A DNA stretch of 6,779 nt from a virus (lineage: Duplodnaviria > Heunggongvirae > Uroviricota > Caudoviricetes). Positions 1 through 6,579 of the stretch are shown here, one piece after another (position 1 is the first letter of the stretch; each line of letters begins with the position of its first letter). The translations under genes and the position numbers were made by a program. Where the stretch lies: positions 1 to 6,779 of IMG/VR virus record IMGVR_UViG_2698536369_000007. One strand, 5' to 3'. Below the pieces are notes generated by a model. It saw only the letters and a program-made list of their open reading frames with translations. It did not search any database and was not told the DNA's origin.

Positions 1-110
1 GTACTTAGGATAGCCAACCATCAGATGCTGCATTTGCATAGTGCAATCTCCCCTTACTTATCCGGAGGCAATTGCAATATCTCTGTGAACTTACACAGGA
101 GAAGCAGGTT

Positions 111-266
111 ATGAAGCAGCAAAAGGCGATGTTAATCGCCCTGATCGTCATCTGTTTAACCGTCATAGTGACGGCACTGGTAACGAGGAAAGACCTCTGC
201 GAGGTACGAATCCGAACCGGCCAGACGGAGGTCGCTGTCTTCACAGCTTACGAACCTGAGGAGTAA
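111..266 (+). CDS. hokD: Hok/Gef-family type I toxin, 51 aa (HokD/RelF-like)
   Basis: ATG at 111 preceded by GGAG (98-101). Product MKQQKAMLIALIVICLTVIVTALVTRKDLCEVRIRTGQTEVAVFTAYEPEE has one N-terminal TM helix and the conserved Cys-containing tail of Hok proteins. ORF-track ORF 72..266 is the same frame with an upstream extension. Stop TAA 264-266. Confidence 0.85.
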   Translation: MKQQKAMLIALIVICLTVIVTALVTRKDLCEVRIRTGQTEVAVFTAYEPEE

Positions 267-334
267 GAGACCAGGCGGGGGAGAAATCCCTCGCCACCGC
301 TGATGTGTCAGGCATCCTCAACGCACCCGCACTT

Positions 335-361
335 AACCCGCTTCGGCGGGTTTTGTTTTTT
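335..361 (+). terminator. Rho-independent terminator downstream of hok (5-bp GC stem with UUCG tetraloop, then T-run)
   Basis: ccCGC(337-341) ttcg GCGgg(346-350), flanked by A335-A336 and T351-T352, followed by TTTTgTTTTTT (351-361). Confidence 0.7.
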
Positions 362-433
362 CTGGTCGTTCTGGTTTACAATCCATCCGTCAGCCTGAAC
401 AACTGGCACCTGCTGCGCCAGCAGAGAAAACAG

Positions 434-712
434 ATGGCGCACGATACCAAATTTTACAATTCGGATAACTCTGCCGCCCCTGCCAGCAGGCACGGGCGGC
501 GTTCTCATGCATTCAAATCTGACTGGTATCAGCACGACCCCTGCACCGAAGAACAGGCTGAATGGCTGATTCAGTGTTACCGCAGGCGCGGATACGAGGT
601 TAAGAAAGCCCTCAGTCTCGATTATCGTCACTGGATAATCTCCGTCAGGCTTCCTTACTCCGAACGCCCACCGCGTCCGTCCCGCACATTCCAGCAACGC
701 ATCTGGAGGTAA
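434..712 (+). CDS. small hypothetical protein, 92 aa from ATG 434 (alternative in-frame ATG at 305 would overlap the hok terminator)
   Basis: Open frame ending TAA 710-712, which sits 1 nt before the GTG start of the next gene with a GGAGG SD (705-709) inside its last codons, implying translational coupling. Occupies the position of rem in the Qin prophage hokD-rem-ydfU order, but I cannot confirm identity. No recognisable motif. Confidence 0.45.
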   Translation: MAHDTKFYNSDNSAAPASRHGRRSHAFKSDWYQHDPCTEEQAEWLIQCYRRRGYEVKKALSLDYRHWIISVRLPYSERPPRPSRTFQQRIWR

Positions 713-713
713 C

Positions 714-1763
714 GTGCGGGTATTACTTCGACCTGTTCTGGTACCGGAACTCGGGCTGGTGATCGTTAAGCCGGGCCGTGAATCCATGCCGGTATTCCAC
801 AATACCCGGGTACTGGTGGAGCCGGAACCGAAAAGCATGCGTAATCTGCCGTCCGGGGTCGTTCCTGCCGTTCGCCAGCCGCTGGCGGAGGATAAATCAT
901 TACTGCCATTTTTCAGCGACGAACGAGTGATTCGTGCTGCTGGTGGCGCTGGCGCATTGTCTGACTGGTTACTGCGCCATGTTAAATCCTGCCAGTGGCC
1001 ACACGGCGATTATCACCACAGTGAAACCGTCATTCACCGTTATGGTACCGGCGCAATGGTGTTGTGCTGGCACTGCGACAACCAGTTGCGTGACCAGACC
1101 TCCGAATCACTTGAGCAACTTGCTCACCAAAACTTGTCAGCATGGATGATTGACGTCATTCGTCACGCAATGAATGGCACACAGGAGCGTGAATTATCGC
1201 TGGCTGAATTATCCTGGTGGGCGGCCTGCAATCAGGTGGTGGATGCACTACCTGAGGCAGTAGCGCGTCGTTCGCTGGGATTACCAGCGGAAAAAATCCG
1301 CTCCGTATACCGTGAGAGTGACATCGTACCGGGAGAACAGACAGCCATCAGCATACTGAAGCAGCGCACAAAAAATATTGCGCTGCCACTTCACGTCCAC
1401 CAGCAACAAAATCCACCACAGAAAAAAACGGTTGTCAGTATCGCCGTTGATCCGGAGTCTCCTGAATCGTTCATGAGGCGGCCTAAACGTTGCCGTTGGG
1501 TTAATGAGAAATACACGCGCTGGGTAAAGACACAGCCGTGTGCGTGTTGTGGTAAGCCTGCTGACGATCCGCATCACCTGATTGGTCATGGTCAGGGGGG
1601 AATGGGGACAAAGGCCCACGATATTTTCACGCTACCGTTGTGCCGGGAGCACCACAACGAACTTCATGCAGACCCGCTGGAGTTTGAGAAAAAGTACGGC
1701 TCTCAGATTGAGTTAATTTTTCGTTTTCTTGATCACGCCTTTGCGACTGGCGTGCTCGGGTAA
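714..1763 (+). CDS. ydfU: DUF968-family protein (YdfU-like) with C-terminal HNH-like Cys/His cluster, 349 aa
   Basis: GTG 714 with GGAGG at 705-709 (5-nt spacing). C-terminal motif CACCGKPADDPHHLIGHGQGG...LPLCREHHNELH is a zinc-binding/HNH-like signature. Length and position match the nin-region DUF968 protein of lambdoid prophages. Stop TAA 1761-1763. Confidence 0.7.
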   Translation: MRVLLRPVLVPELGLVIVKPGRESMPVFHNTRVLVEPEPKSMRNLPSGVVPAVRQPLAEDKSLLPFFSDERVIRAAGGAGALSDWLLRHVKSCQWPHGDYHHSETVIHRYGTGAMVLCWHCDNQLRDQTSESLEQLAHQNLSAWMIDVIRHAMNGTQERELSLAELSWWAACNQVVDALPEAVARRSLGLPAEKIRSVYRESDIVPGEQTAISILKQRTKNIALPLHVHQQQNPPQKKTVVSIAVDPESPESFMRRPKRCRWVNEKYTRWVKTQPCACCGKPADDPHHLIGHGQGGMGTKAHDIFTLPLCREHHNELHADPLEFEKKYGSQIELIFRFLDHAFATGVLG

Positions 1764-1775
1764 AAGAGGTGACTG

Positions 1776-2135
1776 ATGCTCATAGATTTGGTTTTACCTT
1801 ACCCGCCGACGGTGAACACCTACTGGCGACGTCGTGGCAGCACATATTTTGTATCAAAAGCCGGTGAGCGTTATCGCCGGGCTGTGGCGCTTATTGTTCG
1901 CCAGCAGCGGCTGAAATTAAGCCTGTCCGGAAGGCTGGCGATAAAGATTATTGCCGAGCCACCGGATAAGCGCCGCCGTGACCTGGACAATATTCTGAAA
2001 GCGCCGCTGGATGCGCTGACGCATGCGGGGTTGCTAATGGACGATGAGCAGTTTGATGAAATCAATATTGTGCGCGGTCAGCTCGTTCCTGGTGAGCGGC
2101 TGGGGATAAAAATCACAGAACTGGAGTGCGCATGA
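1776..2135 (+). CDS. rusA: RusA-family Holliday junction resolvase, 119 aa
   Basis: ATG 1776 with AAGAGGTG SD (1763-1770). Product shares the RusA blocks LPYPPTVNTYW / PDKRRRDLDNILKAPLDALTHAGLLMDDEQ / LGIKITEL with E. coli RusA ([30 protein letters not shown]). Stop TGA 2133-2135. Confidence 0.9.
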   Translation: MLIDLVLPYPPTVNTYWRRRGSTYFVSKAGERYRRAVALIVRQQRLKLSLSGRLAIKIIAEPPDKRRRDLDNILKAPLDALTHAGLLMDDEQFDEINIVRGQLVPGERLGIKITELECA

Positions 2136-2821
2136 ATAACCACTATTTACAGTTTGTGCGTGAGCTGCTCATTATCGCTACCGCCGATTTGATTGGGGCA
2201 ACAAAAGGTCAGCTTGAAGCCTGGCAGGAGAATGCCATGTTCGATACAGGGCGTTACAGGCGAAAAAAAATCCGGTACCGCGATGAAGTGACTGGAAAAA
2301 TGATAACGCGGGATAATCCACCAATCCCGGGAAAGCAATCGCTGGCGAAGGTGACGTCAATTCCTCTGGTCAGTCCGATTGAGTTTTCGACATCATCGTG
2401 GCGGCGGGCTGTTCTGTCTCTTGAAGAACATCATAAAGCCTGGTTGTTGTGGTGTTACAGCGGGAGTATTTGTTGGGAATATCAGATCGCGATAACACAG
2501 TGGGCGTGGAATGAATTTAATACTCAATCCGGTACCAGAAAAATTGCAGGGAAAACGCAGGAACGCCTGAAAAAATTAATCTGGCTGGCGGCGCAGGCAG
2601 TAAAAGCAGAACTTTTTGGTGGGGAAGGTTATGAATACAAGGAGCTGGCATTACTGGTGGGAGTGACAACTAAAAACTGGTCCAAAACATTTACTCGTCA
2701 CTGGGTTGCAATGAAACACATTTTTCACCGACTGGATAGTGAGGCTTTATTGTTTGTAATGAGAACGCGTTCAAAACAAAAGGCGGCATTTTCAAAGCAA
2801 AGTGTTGCAAAAGTAGATTGA
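2132..2821 (+). CDS. putative late-gene antiterminator Q (Qin QuuQ / phage 82-type family), 229 aa
   Basis: ATG 2132 overlaps the rusA stop in an ATGA arrangement, with GGAG at 2123-2126 (ORF track gives a GTG start at 2126). Call rests mainly on synteny: immediately after rusA and immediately before a consensus-like promoter and short-transcript terminator. No motif verified by eye. Stop TGA 2819-2821. Confidence 0.6.
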   Translation: MNNHYLQFVRELLIIATADLIGATKGQLEAWQENAMFDTGRYRRKKIRYRDEVTGKMITRDNPPIPGKQSLAKVTSIPLVSPIEFSTSSWRRAVLSLEEHHKAWLLWCYSGSICWEYQIAITQWAWNEFNTQSGTRKIAGKTQERLKKLIWLAAQAVKAELFGGEGYEYKELALLVGVTTKNWSKTFTRHWVAMKHIFHRLDSEALLFVMRTRSKQKAAFSKQSVAKVD

Positions 2822-2833
2822 AAGGCATATATT
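2805..2833 (+). promoter_or_regulatory. sigma70 promoter, candidate late promoter pR' (Q engagement site expected just downstream)
   Basis: -35 TTGCAA (2805-2810), 17-bp spacer, -10 TATATT (2828-2833). The -35 lies in the last codons of Q and the -10 just after its stop. Predicted start near 2840, about 50-70 nt before the terminator at 2885-2913. Confidence 0.5.
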
Positions 2834-2884
2834 TCATGCAAATCTGATATTTTGCCGATTTTGTACGTGATGGCAAAAGCAAAC

Positions 2885-2913
2885 AAAACCCGCCCACAAG
2901 CGGGTTTTTTTGT
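2885..2913 (+). terminator. Rho-independent terminator (tR'-like, ends the short pR' transcript)
   Basis: aaaACCCGC(2888-2893) ccacaa GCGGGT(2900-2905) followed by TTTTTTT (2905-2911). Confidence 0.75.
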
Positions 2914-2993
2914 GCCACTTATCTCGGATAGACATGGTGAATGCGCTGGTGGAGGAAGCAAGGGTAATTTTTAACCAGGTGATTCTTGAATGC

Positions 2994-3022
2994 TTGCAAC
3001 ATTGATTTCGTAACGTTATTAT
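2994..3022 (+). promoter_or_regulatory. sigma70 promoter for the tRNA cluster
   Basis: -35 TTGCAA (2994-2999), 17-bp spacer, -10 TATTAT (3017-3022), then a GC-rich discriminator CCTGCGCC. First tRNA 5' end is at 3032. Confidence 0.5.
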
Positions 3023-3031
3023 CCTGCGCCC

Positions 3032-3107
3032 GGCCCTTTAGCTCAGTGGTGAGAGCGAGCGACTCATAATCGCCAGGCCGCTGGTTCAAATCCAGCAAGG
3101 GCCACCA
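3032..3107 (+). tRNA. ileZ: tRNA, anticodon CAT (Ile2-type that reads AUA after lysidine modification, or Met); ileZ-like phage tRNA
   Basis: 76 nt cloverleaf folded by hand: acceptor GGCCCTT/AAGGGCC, D-arm GCTCAGTGGTGAGAGC, anticodon loop CTCATAA (CAT at 3065-3067), T-arm GCTGG TTCAAAT CCAGC, discriminator A, encoded CCA. Close to my recollection of E. coli ileX. Confidence 0.85.
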
Positions 3108-3114
3108 TCACATA

Positions 3115-3191
3115 CCGCCATTAGCTCATCGGGATAGAACGCCAGCCTTCGAAGCTGGTTTCGCGGGGTTCGAGTCTCCGATGGCGGTCCA
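3115..3191 (+). tRNA. tRNA-Arg, anticodon TCG (reads CGA)
   Basis: 77 nt: acceptor CCGCCAT/ATGGCGG, anticodon stem CCAGC/GCTGG, loop CTTCGAA (TCG at 3149-3151), T-arm CGGGG TTCGAGT CTCCG, encoded CCA. One C:A mismatch in the D-stem. Confidence 0.75.
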
Positions 3192-3204
3192 TTATCGGTA
3201 TTCT

Positions 3205-3281
3205 GCGTTTTTAGCTCAGCCGGACAGAGCAATTGCCTTCTAAGCAATCGGTCACTGGTTCGAACCCAGTACAACGCACCA
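3205..3281 (+). tRNA. tRNA-Arg, anticodon TCT (reads AGA)
   Basis: 77 nt: D-arm GCTCAGCCGGACAGAGC, anticodon stem ATTGC/GCAAT, loop CTTCTAA (TCT at 3239-3241), T-arm ACTGG TTCGAAC CCAGT, encoded CCA. One T:C mismatch in the acceptor stem (3210:3272). Confidence 0.75.
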
Positions 3282-3450
3282 CACTTATTTTCCCTCGCTC
3301 GCTTTTGCGGACCTTTTTTGTATCCGCACCACGCCCGGCGCATACCAACCACAGAGCCTTTCGGGGGGAGCTTATGGAGTGGTCAGTGTGACTTTCTCTG
3401 TGGGCAGATCGCTCCCGGGCGTTGGCTCACCCACCCAAAGGAACGTCACG

Positions 3451-3883
3451 ATGTTTGGTATTTTTGGTAAAAAAAGCCCGCAGAGCGGCAACGGAAATTA
3501 AAAAGTTTGAAAAACGCGATCTGGCACAGGTGGTGATTAACGCCGCATACCTGGTGGCCTGTGCAGATGGTGAATGTGAGGCTTCCTAGAAAGCGAAGAT
3601 CGAACAGGTACTGCGTAATCAGCCTGCGCTGTACGCGTTTACGTCAGAAATTAATGCGATTAGCGCAACCATTATCGGTCAGCTGGATACGAACTTTAAA
3701 ACTGGTCGTCGTGCGGCGTTACGTGAGATCGAGGATGTGAAACACGATACGCGTGAAGCGGAAGATGTGCTGGATGTGGCGGTGGCCATTGCGGAGGCAG
3801 ACGGCGAAATTGAGCCGGAAGAGCGCAAGGTGCTGGAAGAGATTGCCGGTGTTCTGGGTCTTCGTCTGGAGAATTACCTGTGA
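3451..3883 (+). pseudogene. TerB-family (tellurite-resistance TerB-like) gene disrupted by a frameshift in an A7 tract and an in-frame TAG
   Basis: ATG 3451 with AAAGGA SD (3437-3442) gives MFGIFGKK then runs into a TAA at 3499. The +1-shifted frame from the A7 run (3469-3475) reads ARRAATEIKKFEKRDLAQVVINAAYLVACADGECEAS, hits TAG at 3587-3589, then continues KAKIEQVLRNQ...VLDVAVAIAEADGEIEPEERKVLEEIAGVLGLRLENYL to TGA 3881-3883. The two [AV]xxxAxADG...E blocks are the TerB-domain signature. The ORF track shows no intact + ORF here. Confidence 0.6.
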
Positions 3884-4047
3884 CGGTAAAACTGCGCCTG
3901 ACTGTGGCTGCACTCCTGCTGTTTCTGGTGGTGATGGTGGATTTCACCAGCAGAATCATGTCGGTGCTGGCGGATGGGGTGCTGGTCTGCGGCATTATGG
4001 TATTGCTGTGGCCGGTGATAAAAAGAAACAGCCTGCATAATGCTTGA
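3880..4047 (+). CDS. possible small hydrophobic (two-TM) membrane protein, about 55 aa from GTG 3880 (37 aa if ATG 3934)
   Basis: GTG overlaps the TerB stop (GTGA) with GGAG at 3868-3871. Product VTVKLRLTVAALLLFLVVMVDFTSRIMSVLADGVLVCGIMVLLWPVIKRNSLHNA is strongly hydrophobic. Stop TGA 4045-4047. Below the ORF-track size cut-off; no homology recognised. Confidence 0.25.
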   Translation: MTVKLRLTVAALLLFLVVMVDFTSRIMSVLADGVLVCGIMVLLWPVIKRNSLHNA

Positions 4048-4248
4048 TTTTTTTGTTTGCTGTTTATTAAAAACACTTCTGCATGGTGAATCCCCCTGTG
4101 CGGTGGGGCAATCAGCAAGAAGGAATATGGGGTAATCGCGGATTCAGGTGCTGATACTGAATTCACCGGGAGGCACCCGGCACCATGCTTTGCCACAAAA
4201 GTGTTATTTCTGTTTTTCTCAAACTATCATCGTTATCCCTTTATTTTC

Positions 4249-4275
4249 GGCTGCGCATGGCGCGGCCTTTTTTTT
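4249..4275 (+). terminator. Rho-independent terminator upstream of the esterase gene
   Basis: GGCTGCGC(4249-4256) atg GCGCGGCC(4260-4267), 8-bp stem with one G:U, followed by TTTTTTTT (4268-4275). Confidence 0.65.
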
Positions 4276-4361
4276 ACGACCAGCCACTGGCAGATGGTCA
4301 TCCTGTGATTTGATTCCGCTTCCGGCTTTTTAACTCTGTTCCTCTACACGGGAGAAATTCG

Positions 4362-6212
4362 ATGTCGATTAAACATTATGATGTTGTCAGGGCGGCGTCG
4401 CCGTCAGACCTTGCGGAAAAGCTGACACACAAACTGAAAGAGGGCTGGCAGCCATACGGCGGACCGGTTGCCATTACGCCGTACACACTGATGCAGGCGG
4501 TGGCTATTGAAGGAGAGCCACAGGTCGGCCCTTCATCTGAGCCGGATTGGTACTACGTCATCGTACTGGCCGGGCAGTCCAATGCTATGGCTTACGGTGA
4601 AGGGCTTCCGCTGCCGGATTCATACGATGCTCCGGATCCGCGCATTAAACAGCTGGCGCGCCGCAGTACAGTGACGCCGGGCGGGGCTGCCTGCAGATAT
4701 AACGATATTATTCCGGCTGACCACTGTCTGCATGATGTGCAGGATATGAGTACGCTGAATCATCCGAGGGCTGACCTGAGCAAAGGGCAGTACGGCTGTG
4801 TCGGCCAGGGTTTACATATTGCCAAAAAACTGCTCCCGTATATCCCGAATAACGCGGGGATCCTGCTGGTACCATGCTGTCGTGGTGGTTCGGCATTTAC
4901 CCAGGGCGCGGAGGGGACATTCAGCGAGTCCACGGGGGCCAGTCAGGATTCGGCACGCTGGGGGGTGGGCAAGCCGTTATATCAGGATCTGATTTCCCGC
5001 ACAAAAGCGGCATTGCAGAAAAATCCCAAAAACGTTCTGCTGGCCGTCTGCTGGATGCAGGGTGAGTTTGACATGAGCGCCGCCACCCACGCACAGCAAC
5101 CTGCGCTGTTTACAGCCATGCTGACACAGTTTCGTGCTGACCTCTCCGTGTTTAACGCGCAGTGCCATGGTGGCAGCGCTGCAGATGTGCCGTGGGTTTG
5201 TGGTGACACGACGTATTACTGGAAAAATACATACGCTACCCAATACGACACCGTGTACGGCGGGTATAAAAACAGGGAGAGTGAGGGCGTTTATTTTGTG
5301 CCCTTCATGACAGACGGTAACGGCGTCAATACCGCCACTAACGCGCCGGCAGAAGATCCGGATATTCCGGCATCAGGATATTACGGTGCGGCATCGAGAA
5401 CGAATGGAAACCAGGTATCATCAAACCGCCCGACACATTTCAGTTCATGGGCGCGCAGGAGCATTATTCCGGATCGTCTGGCAACCGCTATTCTGAACGC
5501 AGCCGGGCGCACCTCAGCCTTCATCAGTGGTAAGGCACCGGAAATCAAACCCTCGCCCGGCGGCAACACGCCATCGGGTCCGTCTGCAGATACGTCCGTT
5601 CGCACAATCTCCCTGCTGCCGGCAGCCGGAGAGGCTGCTGCGCAGGGCTGGAGCATTAAGGATGGCGGAATTCAGTTGTCAGATGGTGTATTTAAGATCA
5701 CCAAGCAGAGCAATAAAACCTGGTCCCTGACGCATCCGGTGGATGACGCAATTACCCTGCTGACACAGGGCGGCAGACTGACCTGTAAGTTCCGCCTGTC
5801 AGGCGCACTGACCAACAATCAGTTCGGGCTGGGGATTTATCTGTATACGGATGCTCCCGTTCCTGATGGTGTGGCGATGACGGGTACCGGTAATCCGTTC
5901 CTGATGTCGTACTTCACTCAGACCACTGACGGCAGAGTGAATCTGATGCATCACAGGAAAGCCGGAAACACGAAGCTGGGGGAGTTCGGCGATTACGGTA
6001 ACGACTGGCAGACGCTGGAGCTGGTGTTCACCGCCGGCAGTGCCACGGTTACTCCGAAACTGAATGGAGTGGCTGGCCCGGCATTCCAGGTTATAAAAGA
6101 CGGTCTGACACTGGGACTGAATGCGCTGACGCTGACGGATGTTACAAAAAATGCAGCGTATGGCGTTGAGATAGAAAGTCTGGTGCTGGAGATAAATGCA
6201 CCGGCAGCATAA
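4362..6212 (+). CDS. nanS: prophage DUF1737 + SGNH/SASA-family esterase (NanS-p-like 9-O-acetyl sialate esterase), 616 aa
   Basis: ATG 4362 with GGAG at 4351-4354. N-terminal MSIKHYDVVRAASPSDLAEKL...GWQPYGG matches the DUF1737 start. VIVLAGQSNAMAYGEG carries the GQSN catalytic-serine motif (nt 4572-4583) of sialate O-acetylesterases. Size and position (after the tRNA trio and cargo slot, before the lysis region) match nanS-p of Stx-type phages. Stops TAA TAA 6210-6215. Confidence 0.8.
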   Translation: MSIKHYDVVRAASPSDLAEKLTHKLKEGWQPYGGPVAITPYTLMQAVAIEGEPQVGPSSEPDWYYVIVLAGQSNAMAYGEGLPLPDSYDAPDPRIKQLARRSTVTPGGAACRYNDIIPADHCLHDVQDMSTLNHPRADLSKGQYGCVGQGLHIAKKLLPYIPNNAGILLVPCCRGGSAFTQGAEGTFSESTGASQDSARWGVGKPLYQDLISRTKAALQKNPKNVLLAVCWMQGEFDMSAATHAQQPALFTAMLTQFRADLSVFNAQCHGGSAADVPWVCGDTTYYWKNTYATQYDTVYGGYKNRESEGVYFVPFMTDGNGVNTATNAPAEDPDIPASGYYGAASRTNGNQVSSNRPTHFSSWARRSIIPDRLATAILNAAGRTSAFISGKAPEIKPSPGGNTPSGPSADTSVRTISLLPAAGEAAAQGWSIKDGGIQLSDGVFKITKQSNKTWSLTHPVDDAITLLTQGGRLTCKFRLSGALTNNQFGLGIYLYTDAPVPDGVAMTGTGNPFLMSYFTQTTDGRVNLMHHRKAGNTKLGEFGDYGNDWQTLELVFTAGSATVTPKLNGVAGPAFQVIKDGLTLGLNALTLTDVTKNAAYGVEIESLVLEINAPAA

Positions 6213-6213
6213 T

Positions 6214-6521
6214 AAAAAAAGAGCCAGCGACTGACCTGAAAGAAGACGCTGGCTAAAAGGCCTTATATGTTTGTAGAGACTTATTTTTCACAGACAGCAA
6301 TGATGCCTGTCAATATATTATCAATATGCGGATTGTTTCAGTTACAGATGCTTTATTAAGGAAAAAAACAGCCAGCACTGACTTTCGGTGGAGAGGTGCT
6401 GGCTCAGAAGGATAGTTGGATTTCACATGATACTTATGCCTGGCGGTATATTTTCTGACAGACAGTGACGGGTGTTGTCAAGATATTGTGTCATTTATAA
6501 CCTGAATCAGGGGAGGCCGGA
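6214..6521. repeat. two diverged tandem repeat units (about 6214-6360 and 6362-6521), each starting with an A7 run and an 8-9 bp inverted repeat (AGCCAGCG/CGCTGGCT; AGCCAGCAC/GTGCTGGCT)
   Basis: Unit 1: A-run 6214-6220, hairpin 6222-6254, then ...TTATTTTTCACAGACAGCAATGATGCCTGTCAATATATT. Unit 2: A-run 6362-6368, hairpin 6370-6404, then ...TATATTTTCTGACAGACAGTGACGGGTGTTGTCAAGATATT. Stems are conserved with a compensatory G:C to A:T change while the loops differ. On the - strand each hairpin is followed by T7, so they look like intrinsic terminators for minus-strand transcription. Confidence 0.55.
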
Positions 6522-6579
6522 ATGTTATCTGGCATTTTTAGCAGAGCCTGAATGCCATAATCACGGCTCCCGGAGTTGG

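Follow-up and report, generated by a model that had tools for sequence, protein, structure and literature searches.

We have analysed a DNA stretch of 6,779 nucleotides (nt), positions 1–6,779 of the IMG/VR virus record IMGVR_UViG_2698536369_000007 (Caudoviricetes), and this whole stretch is referred to as the window below. Positions 434–1763 of the window lie in the early-right ("nin") operon of a lambdoid prophage and comprise two genes, namely a small open reading frame (ORF) of 92 amino acids (aa) and a gene for a DUF968 protein that corresponds to YdfU of Escherichia coli K-12, and rusA and Q follow them without real gaps. We consider it likely that YdfU, as we also call the window protein, is a zinc-stabilised HNH recombination nuclease encoded behind a coupled small gene and possibly guided by RecA. 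The parts of this reading differ in strength. The HNH nuclease-type fold of the C-terminal domain is predicted by structure modelling with high confidence; that YdfU is an active recombination nuclease is suggested by its sequence with moderate confidence; and its dependence on RecA, proposed by analogy with relatives, is held with low confidence.

That an HNH-type nuclease is encoded next to RusA in the nin region, which is the core of this reading, can already be found in the literature and in PHROGs. To this we add the identification of phage P1 Ref and phage phiNM1 Gp16 as the closest relatives in structure and sequence, an orphan N-terminal domain with a second (predicted) zinc site, the recognition of the small ORF as a real gene leading alternative nuclease cassettes, and the rejection of an antisense ORF. 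These additions refine a known classification incrementally and leave the understanding of these phages unchanged. They concern genes that are very common in E. coli and a K-12 gene, ydfU, that is still a function-unknown "y" gene, and they place its nuclease core closest to two phage HNH enzymes known to act with RecA. An earlier note on this DNA, made from the sequence alone, had pointed out the coupling of the two genes and a metal-binding cluster in the DUF968 protein; its observation is confirmed, and its interpretation is partly supported.

The predicted nuclease domain of YdfU and its relatives

The Pfam family DUF968 (PF06147) matches residues 160–346 of YdfU along its whole profile (positions 1–171 of 171; E 7.4e-77; 257.6 bits against a gathering threshold of 27.8), and phrog_96, annotated as "HNH endonuclease", covers the full-length protein at E 7e-176. 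A HMMER search with the protein retrieved 3052 cluster representatives at E ≤1e-3, including full-length relatives down to 28% identity. An alignment of 31 sequences of diverse DUF968 relatives served both for the conservation counts given below and as the input for an AlphaFold2 (AF2) model, which has a mean predicted local distance difference test score (pLDDT) of 87 and consists of two folded parts, residues ~1–225 and 243–349, joined by a linker.

The CxxC...HH...C..HH cluster that the earlier note had recognised near the C-terminus can be read as C276-A-C278-C279, H287-H288, C310-R-E-H313-H314 and H318 (nt 1539–1550, 1572–1577, 1641–1655 and 1665–1667), and its likeness to HNH nucleases is borne out by the HNH fold of the modelled C-terminal domain (C-domain), by phrog_96 and by the profile match to Ref described below. 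Four Cys/His ligands flank the beta-beta-alpha core, as in the zinc-finger subclass of HNH proteins, and the predicted beta-beta-alpha-metal fold, with a predicted catalytic His where strand 1 ends and predicted metal-binding His residues in the helix, has the features of the His-Me finger nucleases. The predicted zinc ligands C276, C279, C310 and position 313 (C or H) are kept in 31, 25, 26 and 25 of the 31 relatives, and the predicted catalytic or metal-binding residues H287, H288, D303, H314 and H318 in 27, 28, 31, 27 and 27. In the mechanism that we propose, the C-terminal ~100 residues would form a beta-beta-alpha-metal nuclease in which C276, C279, C310 and H313 hold a structural zinc, H288 together with H287 acts as the general base, and D303, H314 and H318 organise the catalytic metal. 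YdfU would be a divalent-metal-dependent HNH nickase or endonuclease acting on phage or host DNA intermediates in lytic growth; its substrates would be recombination or replication intermediates, and it would work alongside RusA.

The C-domain appears to be homologous to the cores of P1 Ref, YbcO and Gp16. For Ref, a RecA-dependent HNH endonuclease (PDB 3PLW), the profile match of the C-domain has a probability of 89.6% (E 1.9e-6; 37% identity over 57 columns). The closest experimentally studied relative by sequence is Gp16 of Staphylococcus phage phiNM1, a RecA-interacting nickase that is growth-inhibitory on overexpression and is composed of a NinB-like N-domain and an HNH domain with CxxC, CREH, H157, H185 and H189 (NAR 2026, PMC12817073). 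BLASTP aligns Gp16 with YdfU at 41% identity over 59 aa of the HNH core (E 6e-10) with an identical CxxC-9-H...CREHH-3-H spacing, and H287/H288, H314 and H318 of YdfU are in register with H157, H185 and H189 of Gp16. Gp16 is a full-length member of the HNHc_6 family that also exceeds the DUF968 cutoff, and its gene, like ydfU, lies in an early/recombination region with RusA nearby. YbcO of the DLP12 prophage (DUF1364; PDB 3G27) is a 96-aa single domain without the YdfU-type N-terminal part, and its similarity to YdfU is marginal (E 0.36). NinG of lambda (Rap, a branch-specific endonuclease) occupies the same slot before Q and shares a CxxC..D/H-H knuckle with YdfU, but differs from it in architecture and in Pfam family; homology between NinG and YdfU was rejected, the comparison giving only an 18-column motif match with a probability of 6.5%. 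Searches of both window proteins by phmmer against PDB sequences gave chance zinc-finger and kinesin matches only, and NCBIfam has no model for either of them.

The earlier note had regarded DUF968 as uncharacterised, which holds only for the YdfU-type proteins themselves. DUF968 and DUF1364 have been placed in group 7 of the His-Me finger nucleases, with YdfU and YbcO (3G27) named and with RusA, Q and antirepressors listed as neighbours (Jablonska et al., 2017, PMC5714182). DUF968 proteins have also been described as carrying a C-terminal zinc-finger HNH motif, and an Orf-like N-part has been proposed for the Gram-positive members (Curtis et al., 2014, PMC4118853), and to these we can add PHROG 96 and the 2026 study of Gp16.

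RecA targets or stimulates Ref and Gp16 and may do the same for YdfU; several observations weigh against this or against nuclease activity. YdfU does not reach the threshold of HNHc_6 (PF16784; 22.8 against 26.6 bits, residues 271–320 only), and it has no match to the Pfam family RecA_dep_nuc at E ≤0.1. The Ref insertion that contains the mutationally defined H153 is absent from YdfU by residue count of the alignment. The N-terminus of Ref is a 76-residue disordered basic tail, whereas that of YdfU is a folded domain of 225 residues, the only basic stretch before the core being the short RRPKRCRW; the Orf/NinB-like N-domain of Gp16 is likewise lacking. Because the folded N-domain of YdfU is unlike both the Ref tail and the NinB-like domain, RecA dependence is proposed by analogy only. 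Genes for DinI, a phage RecA and a protein with a LexA DNA-binding domain lie closely upstream in several genera, which fits a RecA-linked function without being a proof of it, and these neighbours could be ordinary cargo of the nin region. Finally, the HH and Cys residues have been lost in some relatives (P0338, P0366 and P0318), so that catalysis is not universal in the family.

The absence of the catalytic His pair from some relatives would also be expected if YdfU were a non-catalytic zinc-finger DNA-binding or regulatory protein built on an HNH-like scaffold. Such a role would accord with the annotation of one family member as a phage transcriptional regulator (PMC5714182), with the growth inhibition by Gp16, which is abolished by zinc-finger mutants and not by H157A (PMC12817073), and with the zinc site of the N-domain, which is kept more strictly than the catalytic residues. 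The window protein, however, has all of the predicted catalytic residues, and their retention in 27–31 of the 31 relatives argues for selection on catalysis; we give a non-catalytic role a very slim chance.

The N-terminal domain

Residues 1–159 of YdfU belong to no Pfam family, and we have found no convincing match for the N-domain in PDB, Pfam or BFVD. The BFVD library of viral structures matched the C-domain only, a profile search against PDB gave only a spurious match to the coiled-coil V-ATPase subunit E, and a Pfam search at E ≤10 gave only positions 1–60 of DUF968 and a non-significant match to YnfU. A lambda Orf/NinB-like domain, as published for the Gram-positive DUF968 proteins, was rejected for YdfU, which shows no relation to lambda Orf.

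The domain contains a Cys/His tetrad, C93, H101, C118 and C121. In the alignment, C93 and C118 are each present in 31/31 sequences, position 101 is C in 18 and H in 12, and position 121 is H in 23 and C in 8, so the tetrad is kept more strictly than the C-terminal zinc site. The four positions surround a predicted beta-hairpin (105–118) followed by a helix (119–125), with the motif CQ...Y[C/H]...LCWH[H/C]DN, and the exchange of Cys for His among the ligands is a usual trait of structural zinc sites. With this putative zinc site of its own, the N-domain would most likely supply the specificity for a DNA structure or for a partner protein.

Three comparisons, none of which is significant alone, agree on the register in which residues 80–125 align to the HNH module (hhalign of the N-domain against the C-domain, P 0.055; BLASTP against Gp16, E 0.098; hhalign against Gp16, P 0.031). 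A stronger score, obtained between our alignments A9 and A7, is inflated because some A7 rows hold N-terminal fragments. We offer it only as a hypothesis from these alignments that the N-domain may be a degenerate internal duplication of the HNH module.

Several database proteins join the first ~150–270 residues of YdfU to tail-fibre, Collar or J-protein domains (P0307, P0308, P0265, P0361 and P0304). We rejected these fusions as genuine architectures; prophage deletions or chimeric assembly probably produced them. The match of PF27659 to 607-aa fusion proteins belongs to their Q antiterminator part.

The small gene, its coupling to ydfU and its neighbours

The small ORF truly encodes a protein. 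When all six frames were compared in 45 distinct 279-nt alleles, its frame was the sole one open in 45/45 alleles, and the other frames hit stops in some alleles. The ratio of nonsynonymous to synonymous polymorphism (pN/pS) is 0.23 overall, with separate values of 0.52 for the N-terminal extension, 0.15 for the core and 0.10 for the tail; at R89, all four synonymous CGN codons are observed. The profile of phrog_1212, a family of 66 aa annotated as function-unknown, matches residues 27–92 over its full length (positions 1–66 of 66; E 7.6e-37), which makes the ORF a member of PHROG 1212. Homologues outside Escherichia have 66–68 aa and the form MKKSWFQH..LTEEQAEELVERY..., their identity falling to ~30% across genera, and the 26-residue N-extension is a feature of the Escherichia form. 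Members of the family were found in Enterobacteriaceae only, with ~160 clusters from Escherichia/Shigella and ~150 from elsewhere. An AF2 model of the small protein has a pLDDT of >90 in the core; Pfam, NCBIfam and a phmmer search of PDB sequences gave no functional match, and the fold comparison was uninformative. With regard to the start, a hairpin at 335–361 lies inside the possible upstream extensions of this frame from GTG 305 and TTG 353, and this favours ATG 434.

The Qin prophage of K-12 provides the nearest known counterpart. Its YdfU (b1560; DUF968, PHROG 96) is an orthologue with 85% identity over all 349 residues, and its gene order, hokD, rem, the 92-aa ORF, ydfU and ydfT, agrees with the window in the succession of hokD, 92-aa ORF, ydfU and Q and in the 1-nt junction, whereas the window has rusA between ydfU and Q and lacks rem. 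Identification of the small ORF with Rem was rejected, since Qin carries rem as a gene of its own, upstream of the 92-aa ORF. In MG1655 this ORF is uninterrupted, lies 1 nt upstream of ydfU and shares 80% identity with window 434–712 (NC_000913.3, 1644306–1644584; L167:2307–2585, minus strand). The rem–ydfU interval is without annotation in the MG1655 reference record, from which this real gene is therefore missing, and the Prokaryotic Genome Annotation Pipeline (PGAP) calls the ORF in other K-12-like assemblies.

An antisense ORF of 176 aa (308–838, minus strand) extends over the small ORF and the start of ydfU and matches phrog_2734 and phrog_2947. We rejected it as a gene: it contains stops in 26/45 alleles and has a pN/pS of 1.28, and it is a shadow ORF. 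The two PHROGs probably rest on wrong-strand gene calls, and the annotation of this ORF in some phage genomes is spurious.

Between the stop of the small ORF and the GTG start of ydfU at 714 there is one base, C713, and the Shine-Dalgarno (SD) sequence of ydfU lies in the last codons of the small ORF. This placement of the ribosome-binding site suggests that translation of YdfU, from a weak GTG, would be coupled to that of the small ORF. The tight coupling that the earlier note had described, with its 1-nt gap and shared SD, proved to be conserved: the junction TGGAGGTAA[C/T][G/A]TG recurs in 76 of the 77 IMG/VR loci with room downstream, and this recurrence, taken together with the open frame in every allele, is not due to chance. 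One of the 76 loci has ATG in place of GTG, which supports the start at GTG 714. The coupling is thus real and conserved within Escherichia. In other genera, where we read the junctions, the TGG-AGG/GGG ending of the small ORF provides the SD of the next gene, whether YdfU or RusA.

Such an ending, which gives an SD to any next gene in every genus examined, is what one would expect of a translational leader whose translation and 3' SD matter and whose protein is functionless. The weak constraint on the N-extension and the lack of a functional match point in the same direction. Against a leader of this kind stand the purifying selection on the amino acids of the core and tail, the use of all four CGN codons at R89, the confidently predicted fold of the core and the maintenance of the family to ~30% identity across genera, and we regard this alternative as unlikely, though with some claim to attention.

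Co-occurrence of the small ORF with DUF968 genes had been suggested as a check on the pairing, and the outcome is divided, because the pairing is conserved within Escherichia and is not kept across genera. We surveyed 80 species-level loci with a YdfU homologue and examined the neighbours within 4 kb. The small ORF is found in 15 of the loci, comprising seven of the Escherichia/Shigella type with the 1-nt gap, two from Klebsiella with a TGATG overlap, and six in which the small ORF is followed by a divergent RusA and then by YdfU. In the remaining 65, the gene directly upstream of YdfU is commonly one for a Rha/ANT antirepressor-like protein (30 loci, with an ATGA overlap), a KilA-N protein (17 loci) or a DNA methyltransferase. 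RusA lies within 4 kb of the YdfU homologue in 48/80 loci, in agreement with the link to recombination genes drawn in the earlier note.

A reverse survey of seven look-ups starting from the small ORF gave a complementary picture. The small ORF is followed by RusA and then DUF968 in three of them (P0485, P0492 and P0454), by RusA and then a contig-truncated gene in P0477, and directly by DUF968 in two (P0508 and P0459), and NinG is the next gene in the Salmonella case (P0480), where no DUF968 was called within 3 kb. The small ORF adjoins the next gene in all cases, and DUF968 or NinG starts within ~400 nt of it in each look-up with enough downstream sequence. NinG is a protein that we take to be a member of the His-Me finger superfamily. 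As a conserved leader, the small ORF precedes alternative junction nucleases of the nin region, and its association with DUF968 is neither specific nor obligate.

In Salmonella prophages (L168–L171, 2400–4700), where the small-ORF family adjoins NinG in place of YdfU, it lies between DUF1367 and NinG, with YlcG and Q following. This is the slot held by ninF in lambda; the family is not known to resemble NinF, with which no comparison was run. In Citrobacter prophages (L178–L180, 678–3739) the order is a phage-encoded RecA homologue (369 aa), a 77-aa ORF, a protein with a LexA DNA-binding domain, the small ORF and DUF968; other genera have a DinI gene a few hundred bases ahead of the small ORF.

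The distribution of the small ORF bears on the view that the two genes form an inhibitor/nuclease pair, resembling a toxin-antitoxin or immunity system, in which the small protein neutralises the HNH nuclease. An upstream small gene tightly coupled to a nuclease gene is indeed an antitoxin-toxin-like layout, and the relative Gp16 inhibits growth when overexpressed. Nevertheless, an intact YdfU homologue occurs with no small ORF within 4 kb in 65/80 loci, the same small ORF stands directly before RusA or NinG in other genera, PADLOC found no defence or toxin-antitoxin match, and the fold of the small protein is uninformative; the pair is very unlikely to be of this type.

Gene order is likewise relevant to the idea that YdfU might be a homing endonuclease of the selfish, free-standing HNH kind, or else an HNH packaging factor associated with terminase. 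Many phage HNH genes fall in these two classes, and the slot is mosaic, being occupied by YdfU, YbcO or NinG depending on the phage. The position of YdfU is fixed, however, with the replication genes on one side, Q on the other and any terminase far away, and it is co-linear and embedded in the operon in dozens of genera; its nearest relatives are Ref, YbcO and Gp16 and not homing or HK97 gp74-type enzymes, and the AF2 model is without a recognisable sequence-specific DNA-binding module of homing enzymes. We consider either role extremely unlikely.

Returning to a recombination nuclease behind a coupled small gene, the small protein may be an accessory factor for nin-region nucleases that is not specific to YdfU. 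A more detailed joint reading would make PHROG 1212 a dedicated accessory of the nin His-Me nucleases (YdfU or NinG, with or without RusA between), YdfU a RecA-directed enzyme, and the N-domain a dead HNH duplicate that reads DNA structure or binds RecA. We think this combination improbable as a whole. If it were true, most E. coli genomes would carry a three-part recombination module, and functions would be gained for a K-12 y-gene and for an ORF that is unannotated in MG1655.

Source prophage, gene order and expression

The coordinates of the two genes, their parts and their neighbours are collected in Table 1.

Table 1. Positions in the window of the small ORF, ydfU and adjoining features
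Feature	Position	Strand	Remarks
Terminator-like hairpin and T run, hokD/small-ORF interval	335..361	+	Consensus scan: 7-pair stem with 5 G-C, then TTGTTTTTTC
Small ORF, 92 aa, PHROG 1212 family	434..712	+	ATG 434 to TAA 710-712; PGAP WP_001310296
Parts of the small ORF: N-extension residues 1-26, beta-alpha-beta-beta core 28-75, tail 76-92		+	Extension variable, predicted disordered; tail conserved
Shine-Dalgarno GGAGG for the DUF968 gene	705..709	+	Within the last two sense codons (TGG AGG) of the small ORF
YdfU-like DUF968 protein, 349 aa	714..1763	+	GTG start, TAA 1761-1763; PGAP WP_001265075
N-terminal domain, residues 1-225	714..1388	+	No known fold matched; pLDDT mostly 84-96
Cys/His tetrad C93, H101, C118, C121	990-992, 1014-1016, 1065-1067, 1074-1076	+	In the N-domain
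Predicted disordered linker, residues 226-242	1389..1439	+	pLDDT <50; indel-rich, length varies across the family
C-terminal HNH (His-Me finger) nuclease domain, residues 243-349	1440..1760	+	Predicted
SD-like AAGAGGTGA before rusA	1764-1772	+	Read from the sequence
RusA Holliday-junction resolvase	1776..2135	+	Pfam RusA E 3e-16; phrog_34
Antiterminator Q	2132..2821	+	Pfam Phage_antiter_Q E 3.6e-90; start per PGAP

Window 300–2200 is 100% identical to a lambdoid prophage in E. coli O157:H7 strain 493/89, and DNA resembling it is found in 4609/5426 complete E. coli genomes, at least 80% of the query being covered in 2986. In the identical record PGAP calls both genes at exactly 434–712 and 714–1763, and its order for strain 493/89 is replication genes, several hypotheticals, hokD, a 279-nt hypothetical, DUF968, RusA and antiterminator Q, followed past Q by three tRNAs, a TerB pseudogene and a DUF1737 esterase. 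The window ORFs gave concordant matches when scanned against Pfam and PHROGs (Hok, DUF968, RusA, Phage_antiter_Q and SASA/DUF1737).

The stop of ydfU is separated from the rusA ATG by a 12-nt gap that holds AAGAGGTGA, and the rusA stop and the Q ATG overlap as ATGA at 2132–2135. The close packing of the genes and this overlap are consistent with a single antitermination-dependent early-right transcript. A strong Rho-dependent terminator has been reported upstream of K-12 ydfU (PMC9160355).

Downstream of Q, three tRNAs (Ile, Arg and Arg in the identical record) and a match to the small RNA STnc100 (100.8 bits), all detected with Rfam, are located at window 3032–3278 and 4052–4224. This layout resembles the late region of Shiga toxin (Stx) phages, and no toxin gene lies inside the window. 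The DUF1737/SASA esterase ORF (window 4362–6212) has 616 aa, and the coding sequence of strain 493/89 from the corresponding start has 1485 nt (~494 aa); this mismatch in length indicates that the window diverges from strain 493/89 downstream of the compared region. At the other end, window 300–354, ~55 bases that reach the start of the hairpin past hokD, has 95–100% matches in otherwise unrelated records, which include Stx phages, a Rac fragment and an Actinobacillus phage, and this suggests a widely shared 3' element of the hok locus.

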